Shown one piece after another: positions 20,858 to 24,992 of a stretch of DNA of 64,000 nucleotides (position 1 is the first letter of the stretch; every line of letters begins with the position of its first letter). The position numbers were made by a program, and so were the translations under genes. Below the pieces are notes generated by a model that saw only the letters and a program-made list of their open reading frames with translations, was not told the DNA's origin and did no database searches. The stretch is from assembly GCA_014905635.1 (NCBI GenBank), contig JABVCE010000022.1:248001-312000 (forward strand), written 5' to 3'. Origin of the DNA: Scenedesmus sp. PABB004. Taxonomy: Eukaryota.

Positions 20858-21840
20858 CGCTCGGCCGCCTCGCGCACGGGGCGCGCGCGCGCGCATGCTG
20901 CCGCCGCGGCACGCGCGCGCGCGCGCCGCGCCGCCGCCGCACCTGCGCATCGCCGCTGTGAGCGCGCGCACGCGGCCAAACACAGCCTCGACCGTCTCGG
21001 CCGAGCGCATCGTGCCGACCTCCGTGGCAAACAGCCCCGCCCTAAGCTCTGCGCGGCGGGGCGGCGCGCGTGCGCGGGGCGGGGCTGGCGCGGCCGCCAC
21101 CCCGCTGCCGCGCCGCGTGCCGCGCCGCGTGCCGCGGCCCGCCGCACCCGCGGTGTCAGACACGCGGATCGGCGCGCCGTTGCGCGTCGCGCCGCGGCCC
21201 GCCGCCGCGGCAAAGGTCTCGCGCAGCAGCGGCGCGTGCACGACGCCCACGACCGGCTCGCGGCGCACGCAGAGGCCGACGCTCACGCAGCTGAAGGGAT
21301 AGCCATGCACAAAGTTGGTGGTGCCGTCCAGCGGGTCGACCTGGGTTTTGCGGTTGAGGCTTAGGGGGCCAAGGCACCTAAACGCAGGCAGCCGTCGGCC
21401 CGCGGGGCACCTCGCGCCGCCCCCCTCCCCGCCCCCAGGACGCAGCGCGCACCATCCAGGTCGGCTCGTCGGTCAGCTGCCCCTGCCCGCCCGCCTCGGC
21501 CGCCGACTCCTCGCCAATGAACTTGTGCGCCGGGAACGCGGCCGCGAGCGCCGCACGGATCACCTGCGCGCGCCGCGCGCCGCGCGGGACGGGCAGTCGG
21601 CGCCGCCGCCCGCTCGTGGCGCCCAGCGCGCGCGGCCAGCGCCGCCGGCCAGCCCGTCGTAGCGGCGCGCGGGCGCGCCTCCTCGCAGCGCTTGTCGGTG
21701 TCGGTCACGAGGTCGGCGTGGCTGCTCTTGACCTCCACGCCGCGCGCGCTGCCCCAGGCCTGCTCGATGATCGCGCCCGCGGCCTGGGCGGCCTCCAGGG
21801 CCACCGCCAGGCAGCGGTCCAGGTCCAGGTTGCCCGCCAT
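20427..21840 (-). CDS. Inositol monophosphatase (IMPase/VTC4-like), about 6 exons; C-terminal end uncertain
   Basis: DLVTDTDKRCEE, HKFIGEES, LTDEPTWM|VDPLDGTTNFVHGYP, GSCAMNL and YEIGFGGCWDVAA|G. The stop at 20427 assumes one missing G near 20445. Confidence 0.9.
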
Positions 21841-22320
21841 TGTGCGCGCCGCGAGCGTCGCGGCGGCGGCGGGGCGCGCTGCTGCCGCTGCTGCCGCTGC
21901 TGCTGCAGCCGTGTGCGCCGGCCGTTCGAACACGCGTGCGCTGGGCGGTCAAGGCAGCGTCCGCGGGCGGCAATGCACCGGCGGCGTGCTGCAGCGCGCC
22001 GGCGCCGGCGCGGCAGCGGCGGGCAGCGCGGCACCGGCGGGCGGCGGCGGGCGGTCGCGGCGGCACGCACTGACGGTGGCGCTGGTGCTGGAGGGAGCGA
22101 CTCCCGCGTCAGGGGGCGCAGCAAAGATAGTTGCACGCCGGCGCAAGCCCCGAACCGCTCGCACGCCCCCGCCCCGCGTGGTGCTTGTCGCGGAGGTCGG
22201 CCCGCTCTCACCGTCTCCCTGTTCAGTCTGCCGCCGCCAATAGCAAGTTCCGCCCGTTCGCCGCGCGCTCTCTCAGCACAGCCGCACACCGGCACGCTCG
22301 CCCGCCCGGGCTCCCACGCG

Positions 22321-24992
22321 TCATTCTTCTGTCAGCCTGGCCGCCGCCGACGCCGCGTGGTGCTGCTCGCCGGCGTGCCTGAAGCGCACGACCGCACTCG
22401 CCTTCATCAGCCCCCGGCCCCACAGCATCCTGCTCCGCCGGCCCGGCGACAGTTCGCCGGCCGCGGCGCGGCCGCCGCCCGGCGCGCCGGGCGCCGCCGG
22501 CGCGCTGTCCCCGCCGCCGCCGCGGCGGCGCCGGCGGCCCGCTGCGCGTGCGCCGGCCCGCGTCGCCGGGGCCGGCGCCGCCGCCGAGGGTGTTGCGAGA
22601 CGCCAGGAACGCTCGGTACTCGGGCGTGAACTCGGCAAAGCAGCCGCAGCACACGCAGCGCGACTCCGCGCCGCACGAGCCGCCCGGGCCGTGCGGGCTG
22701 AACGCCGTGTGCCGCAGGCAGAACGCCTGCTGGCAGCGCCCGCAGTAGTGCCGGCAGCAGAGCGCCCGGAAGTGGCGCAGGTCAAACGCCTGCGTGCAGC
22801 CGGGGAAGCCGCAGCGCCGCTTGCAGGGCGCCGCCGCCGCGGCCTCGTGCTCGTCCGCGGCGGCGCCGCCGAGCCAGGCCTCGTCCGCGCCGCCGCCGAG
22901 GCACGCTGCGCTGCGGCTCTTGGGCAGGGCGGCGGGCGGCGCCTGCGCGTGGAGCAGGCCCGGCTCGGAGCTGCCGGCCGCCGCCGCGCCGACGCTGTCA
23001 GGGCTGCGCCGCGCCGCCGGCTGCGGCGAGGCGCCCTCGCCGGCGCCAGCGCCGGCCGGCGCGTCGCCCGCCGCGTCGCCGCCGGCGCCGATGATGCGGT
23101 CGCTGCTGCGCTGCGGCCTGCCGGCGCTGGGGCTGGCGCCGCCGGGGCTCGCGTCGGGCCCCGCGCCGCCGCCGCCGGCTGCCGCTGCGGCTGTCGCGCT
23201 CGGCCGCGGCTCGGCACGCCCGCGCGGCAGCGCCTGCAGCAGCCGCGCGAGGCCGTTCAGCCACGCGACCGGCAGCAGCCGCACACACAGGGGCAGCACC
23301 AGCAGCAGCAGGCTGTTGACGACCGCGCGGAGCACGCCGCGCGCCACGCCCGCCGCCGTGCCCGCCGCGCCGCTGCCGCGCTGCCCCGGCGGGCCGTGGC
23401 CGCCGCCCTTGCCAACCGCGGCCGCTTGCACGCTCGCGAGCAGCTGCGCCTGCGCCACCGCCGCCGCCGGCGACGCGGGCGCACCGCTGCCGTCGCCGGC
23501 CAGCGCGCCGGGGGCGACCACCCACACCACGCTGGGCGCCGCCGCGGGTGCCGCGCACGACGGCGCGCCGCGGAGCAGCTGCTGCTGCTGACCGCCCGCC
23601 GCCTCGCCGGGCTCGCAGCGGCCGGCGGCCGCGTCGGTGGCGTGCACCAGGCCGTCCAGGGGCCCGCTCCCGGGCGCAGCGCCCGCCGCCGCATCGGCGG
23701 CGCCGCCGCCGTCGCCCGCCGCCGCCGCCGCCGCCGCCGCCGCACCGCGCGCCGTGTCCGACCACGGCGCGCCGGCGCCGGCGCCGGCGCCGGCGCCCGC
23801 GCCGGCGCCGCCGCGGGCCGCCGCGGGGGGCGGCACGTCCACGGTCTCGCTGCGCGCGTGCACGGGCGAGCGGCCGGCGAGGTTCCACGCGGCGATGCGG
23901 TACTCGTACACGCCGGGCGCGGGCGGCGCGTCGGTGAAGGCGGTGGCCGCGTGGTCGTCGAGCTCCGCGACGACGCTCCACGCGCCGCCGGGGCGGTGCG
24001 CAGGGAAGCGCTCGAGTACATACTTGTGCAGCGGCGGCTCGCCGGGCGCGCCCGGCGGCGCCCACGCGCAGCGCACCGCGCCGGGCGGCCCGGGCGCGCC
24101 GGCGCAGGCGAGGCGCGGCACGGGGCCGGGCTCCGCGCCGAGGCCCAGCATCGCGCGCTGCATCGCGCGCAGCAGCTTCTGCCGGTGCAGCAGGCGCGAC
24201 ACGCCGAGCTCGCGCTCCAGCAGCGCGCCGCCGTCGGTCGCGAGCAGGGGAAAGTCGAGCGGCTGCGCCGAGCGGCGCGGCGCGGCGCGGCGGCGGGGCG
24301 GTGAGGGAAGGCGGCGGCGGGGGCGGGAGGGGGAGGGGGAGGGGCGGCGCTGGCGGCGGGGCGGAGACGGGCGGCGCAGGGCGGCGGCGCGCACCGTGAC
24401 GGCTGACTCGCGGAACGCCGCTGCGTGCATCGGCAGCCCGAGGCTGTGCGCTACCCAGTCGGACACCCGGACGCCCTGCGCCGGCGCGGCCGCGGTCGGC
24501 GCGGTCGGCGGCGGCGGGGCCCCGCAGCCGGCGGCGGCGGCGGGAGCCGCGCCCGCGCGCCCGCGGCACGGCCGCACGTTGAGGACGCGCTGCAGGTGCT
24601 CGTCCCACTCGAGCATCGAGATGTCAGGCCCCGCGTCGCCGCCGTCGAGCTTGTCCGTGATCTGCGCCACCGCCGCGTCGAGGCGGCGGCCTGCGCGCGT
24701 GGCGCGCCGGTCAGCGCGGCGCGCGCGGCATGCGGCGACACGGCGGCGCGGCGCGGCGCGGCGGCCGCACCCCGCCGATTGAGCGCCGCGCCCACGAAGC
24801 TGCGCAGCTCGGCGGCCTGCAGCTGGCCGTCGTGGGAGGTGTCGATGGCGTCGAACAGGCGCGCGCTGGCCGCCGACGGCGGCGTGTGCGGCGGCGCGTC
24901 CGCTGCCCGCGCGCCCGCCGCCGCGCCGCGCCCGCGGCGGCCGCCGCCGCCGCCAGGAGCAGCGCCAGGCGCGCCATGGCCGCGCCCGTCAT
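22321..24992 (-). CDS. STIM-like membrane protein: signal peptide, EF-hand, SAM, FN3, TM, FYVE-like Zn finger; 4 exons, with apparent frameshifts near 24932 and 22510-22560
   Basis: MARLALLLAAA signal; EF loop DTSHDGQLQAAE; SAM DWVAHSLGLPMHAAAFRE...HRQKL...MLGLG; FN3 (W..P...LHKYVLE...YEYRIAAWNLAGRS); hydrophobic VVNSLLLLVLPLCVRLLPVAWL; C...C..F...RHYCGRCQQAFC..H...CVCCGC. Confidence 0.8.

Follow-up and report, generated by a model that had tools for sequence, protein, structure and literature searches.

A Scenedesmus gene of an uncharacterized eukaryotic family with a STIM-type EF-SAM unit and a predicted FYVE-like cytosolic finger

Which protein might sense Ca2+ in lineages that have Orai channels and no STIM? 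The question is raised by a gene on the minus strand of a eukaryotic contig, at positions 22321-24992 of a 64,000-nucleotide stretch of Scenedesmus sp. PABB004 (GenBank assembly GCA_014905635.1, contig JABVCE010000022.1, positions 248,001 to 312,000), hereafter the window. Reviews from 2020 to 2025 describe green algae, early land plants and diatoms as having Orai but not STIM, with the expected Ca2+ sensor unknown (PMC11085791, PMC8318260, PMC11894410), and so agree with the premise of an earlier interpretation made from the letters alone (the sequence-only reading). One of these gives Chlamydomonas a single Orai, whilst STIMs 'appear to be missing' (PMC8318260, 2021); another expects Orai-bearing organisms to have a sensor and states that no STIM1 homologue is present in diatoms, green algae or early plants (PMC11085791, 2024). 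According to a comparative study, STIM originated near the base of animals, where it also recruited its SAM domain (PMC7016017, 2020).

The gene encodes, in order, a canonical EF-hand, a degenerate second EF-hand, a SAM domain, an FN3 domain, one transmembrane helix and a Cys/His zinc finger. We find that the locus belongs to a large unstudied family combining a STIM-type EF-SAM unit with a cytosolic finger of predicted FYVE-like fold; its function and any connection to Orai are proposed by analogy. Literature searches of a limited library, ranked by term counts, surfaced no paper on the family or on a STIM-like protein in algae or plants, in keeping with the earlier suggestion of an undescribed component. 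A conserved membrane protein with such an EF-SAM unit, in lineages with Orai and without STIM, is a concrete candidate for the sensor.

The EF-SAM unit and its likeness to STIM

Relatives were sought with HMMER among 1.84 billion representatives, using as query the read-through translation from exon 2 to FN3. This search returned 389 matches at E<=1e-3 and 104 at E<=1e-10; counts out of 150 below refer to the matches listed of these 389. The family EF-SAM profile matched 98/150, with 54/150 covering at least 120 of its 180 positions, whilst the zinc-finger pattern occurred in 37/150 and a full EF-SAM unit together with the finger in 29/150. The other 52 were mostly long multi-FN3 proteins or fragments beginning after the SAM domain. 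Pfam, run on 43 members, found SAM_2 in 38, SAM_1 in 33, EF-hand_7 in 20, fn3 in 15, EF-hand_STIM1 in four, FYVE in three and SOAR in none. In their source records, members are called hypothetical, uncharacterized, unnamed protein product, EF-hand domain-containing or superfamily protein or, automatically, "Calmodulin".

Family profiles matched the EF-SAM chains of STIM1 and STIM2 over their whole length (E 1e-10 to 4e-13), which upholds the proposal of a STIM-like EF-EF-SAM unit. Profile A4, built from 16 EF-SAM segments, aligned with Caenorhabditis elegans STIM (6pw7_A, E 1.8e-10, profile 32-178, chain 17-158) and human STIM2 (2l5y_A, E 2.5e-10, profile 28-178), each in a single stretch that opens at EF helix 1 and closes at the final SAM helix. 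Comparable results came from profiles of different member sets (A2 against 6pw7, 4.1e-10; A5 against 2l5y, 3.9e-13, and against 6pw7, 6.4e-12). The four entries placed above STIM by A4 are EF-hand-only proteins, and the three with alignments shown match in short repeated stretches. Identity to the STIM EF-SAM is 15-20 %.

Fold was examined through a proxy, homologue P0034, modelled with AlphaFold from a 43-sequence alignment. The spliced EF-SAM of the window is 52 % identical to this homologue (74/142) and 61 % identical to Tetradesmus P0006 (80/132). The model had a mean pLDDT of 81.9, with 10-residue blocks over residues 31-190 at 77-98, most of them at least 89. Foldseek against the PDB, one of the comparisons the sequence-only reading had called for, placed 6pw7 first (E 1.6e-5, TM-score 0.68, 3.4 Å over 158 columns) and as the only match with E<=0.001; 2l5y (STIM2) ranked second and 2k60 (STIM1) seventh, and no other chain exceeded a TM-score of 0.46. 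The SAM domain follows directly on the EF pair in this model, and the two are predicted to pack as they do in STIM.

Several observations weigh against a STIM-type reading of the protein. The model behind the fold comparison is that of a homologue with 52 % identity to the EF-SAM of the window, and the training set of AlphaFold2 was the PDB, STIM EF-SAM structures included. The STIM matches, of roughly 44-52 bits, sum two very common modules, EF-hand and SAM. Pfam EF-hand_STIM1 stayed below cut-off in each of its four matches (best E 6e-4), and a PDB phmmer search with the window's intron-containing read-through found liprin-alpha SAMs best (E 0.07) and no STIM. A SAM-centred profile ranked a SHANK2 SAM first (E 9.8e-7), then 6pw7 (5.3e-6), a second SHANK2 SAM (8.5e-6), 2k60 (8.7e-6) and 2l5y (1.6e-5), with liprin and SARM1 following these chains. 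Beyond the EF-SAM unit, the FN3 domain between SAM and the transmembrane helix could decouple EF-SAM from the membrane, the cytosolic part shares nothing with that of STIM, and an open reading frame (ORF) in the present assembly requires two unexplained frame changes, for which a pseudogene or assembly indels are possible causes.

Part of this evidence would suit convergent domain shuffling, whereby a generic EF pair and a generic SAM were joined apart from STIM and the likeness is one of architecture only, implying no STIM-like mechanism. The first place of SHANK2, the liprin matches of the read-through and the sub-threshold EF-hand_STIM1 matches all lean this way. So does the occurrence of LPQY and HRxKL in liprin and SHANK SAMs: the sequence-only reading had treated LPQY and HRQKL as marks of STIM, but they are general SAM features, and with the SAM-centred profile the domain alone is no nearer STIM than SHANK2. 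Opposing convergence, STIM chains were the only ones among the best 60 per family profile to match EF1, EF2 and SAM in one stretch, and the P0034 model superposes on the STIM EF-SAM as a single rigid unit (144 residues at 2.9 Å). The SAM also aligns to STIM gap-free, whereas the SHANK2 alignment requires a 4-residue gap, and a SAM domain behind a signal peptide is, to our knowledge, otherwise peculiar to STIM. We regard convergence as improbable and consider it very probable that the EF-SAM unit is homologous to that of STIM or folded like it. At the level of sequence, the traits specific to STIM are the colinear EF-EF-SAM unit and the gap-free SAM alignment.

Gene structure and the two frame changes

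G+C content is 74-83 % in each 2 kb bin of window positions 1-64000, about 80 % overall, and stop codons are almost missing from all six frames. Open frames and ORF lists consequently carry little weight here, and third-position G+C (GC3), homology and splice signals were used as coding evidence instead. GC3 of 0.93-1.00 singles out one coding frame per gene segment. The following features were delineated, all on the minus strand; profile positions refer to the family EF-SAM profile and iE is the independent E value.

24930-24992 (-): signal-peptide-like ORF with its ATG at 24992, in a frame differing from that of the EF exon; GC3 1.00 at 24995-24905
24905-24950 (-): frame discontinuity between signal ORF and EF exon; +1 nt or removal of 3n+2 nt needed, no GT donor
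24771-24906 (-): exon with the canonical EF-hand, Ca2+ loop DTSHDGQLQAAE at 24843-24808; profile 33-69
24691-24770 (-): intron 1, 80 nt, GTGCGG...GCGCAG, phase 1
24578-24690 (-): exon 2, degenerate second EF-hand (...KLDGGDAGPDISMLEWDEHLQRVLN); profile 74-111, iE 6.5e-5
24476-24577 (-): intron 2, 102 nt, GTGCGG...GCGCAG; position common to read-through ORFs P0127 and P0142 of other algae
24395-24475 (-): exon 3, N-terminal SAM half (GVRVSDWVAHSLGLPMHAAAFRESAVT); profile 111-139, iE 9.5e-7
24263-24394 (-): intron 3, 132 nt, GTGCGC...GCGCAG; position common to P0127 and P0124
24137-24262 (-): start of exon 4, C-terminal SAM half (PLDFPLLA...LHRQKLLRAMQRAMLGLG); profile 136-180, iE 4.8e-14
23835-24136 (-): FN3 domain
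23267-23323 (-): core of the transmembrane helix (VVNSLLLLVLPLCVRLLPV), top KD19 peak
22589-22843 (-): FYVE-like (predicted) Cys/His zinc finger and two helices
22440-22590 (-): second frame change, inside a low-complexity linker, from main frame to tail frame; no GT-AG intron
22369-22434 (-): conserved basic C-terminal motif SRMLWGRGLMKASAVVRFRHAG; stop codon at 22323-22321

The three introns share a GTGCG start and a GCGCAG end, and two of them interrupt the SAM domain. Removal of intron 1 restores the frame and gives a colinear profile match, and with all three removed four blocks tile the family EF-SAM profile colinearly (33-69 at 24772-24882, 74-111 at 24578-24691, 111-139 at 24392-24478 and 136-180 at 24137-24271). 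Read-through ORFs P0127, P0142 and P0124 have insertions at the two SAM-flanking positions, indicating that introns 2 and 3 sit at positions also used in other species. Exon 4 runs on from 24262 through the FN3 domain, a low-complexity linker, the hydrophobic peak, a second linker and the zinc finger, and its stretch from FN3 to the finger scored 259 and 293 bits against full-length family profiles. The closest orthologue fragments, P0001-P0004, all begin ...LHRQK and finish ...KKRCA(F/Y/H)PG. These shared ends point, in those genomes, to one intron immediately ahead of SAM helix 5 and another within the first zinc knuckle; the window is without both, possibly through intron loss in a GC-rich genome.

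The canonical EF loop named by the sequence-only reading, DTSHDGQLQAAE(L) at 24843-24805, is the sole PROSITE PS00018 match when all six frames of the window are scanned, and 30 shuffles of the window produced 0. Loop positions 1, 5, 6 and 12, which bear on Ca2+ binding, are invariant in 16/16 family sequences. The degenerate second EF-like segment is likewise borne out by the fit of exon 2 to the profile, where the family consensus over the second EF-hand is DGxDxGxTISxxELxxHL; window and family thus share the pairing of a canonical with a degenerate EF-hand that is seen in STIM. The two SAM halves tile the profile colinearly across introns 2 and 3. On the window's own exons, Pfam reported only sub-threshold matches, to EF-hand_5 (E 1.5e-4) and to SAM_1 (E 0.054, 14.3 bits, helix 5 only), the latter because the introns split the domain and the genomic read-through retains helix 5 alone. 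With Pfam sub-threshold or silent on these pieces, the case rests on the family, in which SAM domains are recognized in most of the 43 members.

The two frame changes bear on whether the locus encodes an intact protein. A signal peptide joined by in-frame splicing had been proposed; this fails, as the signal ORF and the EF exon are in different frames and the sequence separating them contains no GT donor. A GT-AG or short GC-AG intron at this junction was sought and rejected as implausible, the only in-phase GC-AG candidate being 29 nt. GC3 nevertheless marks both the signal-ORF frame and the EF-exon frame as coding. Homologues, transcript-derived P0159 among them, have an N-terminal hydrophobic segment of similar length ahead of the EF-hand, and such a segment was found in 12/19 testable members by a crude KD test, which is not a signal-peptide predictor. 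At the second change, a check of the locus found no plausible GT-AG or short GC-AG intron leading from the main into the tail frame. This third frame contains the stop at 22321, which is reached only via the change at about 22590-22440; GC3 of the tail frame is 0.93-0.97.

A pseudogene copy or an assembly error would account for these features, the family being real and the locus lacking an intact protein. Two frame changes without a canonical intron (about 24950-24905 and 22590-22440) speak for this alternative, and at 80 % GC, where stops are rare in all frames, an open frame is weak evidence to the contrary. Set against it, GC3 of 0.93-1.00 is kept in the homologous frame of every segment, GT-AG is retained at all three introns, and the conserved residues, including 12 zinc ligands and the Ca2+ loop, are all present. 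Single-base indels in GC-rich repeats are, moreover, a common assembly error. We give a defective locus little probability and take assembly indels in GC-rich repeats as the likeliest cause of the frame changes; the locus is almost certainly a real member of the family. A neighbouring ORF at window positions 21361-21948 (-) encodes the start of a protein of the inositol monophosphatase family (Pfam Inositol_P, E 1.8e-5, profile 1-53 only), the remainder of which presumably lies in further exons.

FN3 domain, membrane helix, zinc finger and C-terminal motif

The coordinates given by the sequence-only reading for the FN3 domain, the transmembrane helix and the zinc finger were correct. FN3 is real at family level, where a profile matched single titin FN3 domains at E 2.4e-15 and Pfam recognized fn3 in 15/43 members; the window's own FN3 and finger pieces gave no Pfam fn3 and no FYVE match. 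A word-index search restricted to this region recovered four orthologue ORF fragments, 43-56 % identical to the FN3 region of the window, together with titin. One transmembrane helix is indicated by a hydrophobic peak at 23323-23267 (KD19 2.21; next peak 1.52) and is conserved in P0001-P0004. As in STIM, a single helix follows the EF-SAM-bearing region, here with the FN3 domain and a linker in between. The expected lack of CAD/SOAR was confirmed, since neither PF16533 nor another cytosolic Pfam family was found in the window (E<=1), and PF16533 was absent from the 43 members (E<=0.01). Without SOAR/CAD, and with an FN3 spacer and an unrelated cytosolic half, the protein is not a STIM orthologue.

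The zinc finger comprises 12 Cys/His between 22813 and 22640 that are invariant across 36 sequences (C11, C16, H32, C34, C37, C42, H45, H51, C57, C63, C65 and C68). The predicted structure of the window's own 85-residue finger piece had a pLDDT of 89.4, and in a fold search the top 13 of 48,161 PDB representatives belonged to the FYVE and FYVE-related group, Foldseek agreement with that group being at E 0.28-0.8. The best PDB sequence match was the Vps27 FYVE domain (E 0.24), and the Pfam FYVE matches, in 3/43 members, were weak (best E 6.5e-4). On this model, the finger is predicted to be FYVE-like in fold. FYVE domains bind phosphatidylinositol 3-phosphate through the motifs WxxD, R(R/K)HHCR and RVC; the window finger has no WxxD ahead of the first Cys and carries RHYCGR and CVC in place of the other two. 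The FYVE-like fold named in the sequence-only reading is thus upheld as a prediction; the motifs for phosphatidylinositol 3-phosphate are missing. RRHHCR was present in a few members of stramenopile or haptophyte type (P0046, P0060 and P0136), and P0046 and P0060, which have two tandem EF-SAM units, terminate in a finger with this canonical FYVE signature.

Beyond the second frame change, the motif SRMLWGRG..AVVRFRHAG is conserved in orthologues, and the last 22 conserved residues of the tail frame correspond to 22434-22369. They match ...SRMLWGRGWTKVRAVVRLKHA of transcript-derived orthologue P0159, which has the entire architecture from the N-terminal hydrophobic segment to this motif, and ...LLWERAATKLFAITRFRTKG of Gonium P0010. 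The pattern W-x-[RK]-x(3)-K-x(2)-A-[VI]-x(2)-[FL]-[RK] occurs in the window and in P0159, P0010, P0011, P0019, P0023 and P0037. The motif was matched by no family; it resembles a basic amphipathic helix and could be a membrane-, calmodulin- or partner-binding site.

The FN3 domain and the finger also invite a reading as a cell-surface receptor or adhesion protein. Here the EF-SAM-FN3 ectodomain would lie outside the cell, with the abundant external Ca2+ structural or engaged in ligand or homophilic contacts, the finger would serve endocytic sorting, and there would be no store switch. FN3 domains are a typical feature of extracellular proteins, and the family profile also matches the animal cell-surface FN3s of NCAM2, contactins and receptor protein tyrosine phosphatases. 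Tandem EF-SAM-FN3 units in stramenopile and haptophyte members (9/150) look like modular ectodomains, and FYVE-type fingers commonly act on endosomal membranes. Yet the whole-unit fold match is to the STIM EF-SAM and not to an adhesion module, and the canonical Ca2+ ligands are strictly conserved, which is compatible with sensing as well as with structure. STIM1 itself is found partly at the plasma membrane, so location alone cannot separate the two readings. A surface receptor seems to us an unlikely identity, if the most plausible of the alternatives considered, and we favour a membrane protein with a STIM-type EF-SAM in what follows.

Distribution, a possible Ca2+-controlled switch and related systems

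The sequence-only reading described an algal protein, which is right for algae and too narrow, as members also occur in mosses, a lycophyte, stramenopiles and a haptophyte. Chlorophyte members came from Tetradesmus obliquus, the closest among named members (61 % in EF-SAM), Flechtneria rotunda, Gonium pectorale, Polytomella parva, Ostreobium, Bryopsis, Tetraselmis, Pedinophyceae, Picocystis and Pyramimonas, and streptophyte-alga members from Chlorokybus and Closterium. Land plants were represented by the mosses Physcomitrium, Ceratodon and Sphagnum and the lycophyte Diphasiastrum, stramenopiles by Mucochytrium, Chrysoparadoxa and a pelagophyte, and haptophytes by a pavlovalean. Two matches with the prefix Gb_ are presumably Ginkgo biloba gene models, and one with the prefix SM000… we take to be from Spirogloea. 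Two tandem EF-SAM units were found in 9/150 (P0007, P0040, P0046, P0052, P0060, P0071, P0091, P0105 and P0121), the ones with names being the pavlovalean haptophyte P0007 and the labyrinthulomycete Mucochytrium P0091. In P0042 (2145 aa; compare P0044 of Closterium, 1429 aa), PPR repeats follow the EF-SAM-FN3-finger architecture, which may be an artefact of gene-model fusion and not a genuine fused protein. The ESM Atlas yielded the protein's own chlorophyte cluster only (0.89), the remainder being generic EF-hand leads, and a metagenome contig scan matched 308 pattern stretches, none of them a relative.

Reviews extend Orai up to gymnosperms and describe its loss in angiosperms. The land-plant members, mosses, a lycophyte and presumably Ginkgo, together with the lack of an angiosperm among the 18 matches of a word-based search, resemble this reported range; the same pattern equally resembles that of genes tied to flagellated cells.

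On balance, we favour a type I membrane protein of a widespread, uncharacterized eukaryotic family with a STIM-type non-cytosolic EF-SAM. Its layout would comprise a signal peptide, the non-cytosolic EF-SAM, FN3, one transmembrane helix and, on the cytosolic side, a long linker of low complexity, the FYVE-like finger and the basic C-terminal motif. The EF-SAM would be luminal or extracellular, in the ER, another store or at the plasma membrane. Domain order, conserved Ca2+ ligands and STIM-like packing together make a non-cytosolic Ca2+-controlled EF-SAM switch the most economical reading, and we hold the case for such a switch, which draws on analogy, to be about evenly balanced. By analogy with STIM, bound Ca2+ would hold EF-SAM compact, and loss of Ca2+ on the non-cytosolic side would destabilize the unit and lead to its self-association. 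Self-association might then cluster the cytosolic tails, relaying the state through the transmembrane helix, and the clustered finger and basic tail could engage a protein or a membrane as their target, membrane contact sites being one possible setting. Ca2+ sensing, oligomerization, lipid binding and the link to Orai are all things that we infer from the analogy.

A further step would make the family the non-animal counterpart of STIM, sensing Ca2+ in stores or outside the cell and controlling Orai or other Ca2+ entry in green algae, early land plants, stramenopiles and haptophytes, with a FYVE-like and basic-tail effector in place of SOAR, an EF-SAM module older than animals and STIM as a holozoan derivative. 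We consider this doubtful at present. If the unit is homologous to that of STIM, the origin of the EF-SAM sensor would shift far deeper in eukaryote history; even with no link to Orai, the family would represent transmembrane signalling or contact-site proteins of a new type, under the control of Ca2+.

Known systems resemble the protein in part. The cytosolic SAMs of SHANK2/3, liprin-alpha and SARM1 match the family's SAM-centred profile at E 1e-6 to 1e-3 and have the LPQY-like and HRxK(I/L) motifs in common with it, but they lack a preceding EF-hand pair and align to the SAM part only. FYVE and FYVE-related fingers (EEA1, Vps27, Hrs, RUFY, endofin, protrudin/ZFYVE27, rabphilin, RIM and Slp) resemble the predicted finger in being cross-braced and rich in Cys, with a helix on the C-terminal side. 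The closest known system is STIM1/STIM2 of animals and choanoflagellates, with EF-SAM structures 6PW7 (C. elegans), 2K60 (STIM1) and 2L5Y (STIM2). Where STIM continues into CC1, SOAR/CAD and a STIM-type tail, the present family has a long low-complexity linker, the FYVE-like finger and a short basic motif; it carries an extra FN3 domain between SAM and the transmembrane helix, and it occurs in Viridiplantae, stramenopiles and a haptophyte.

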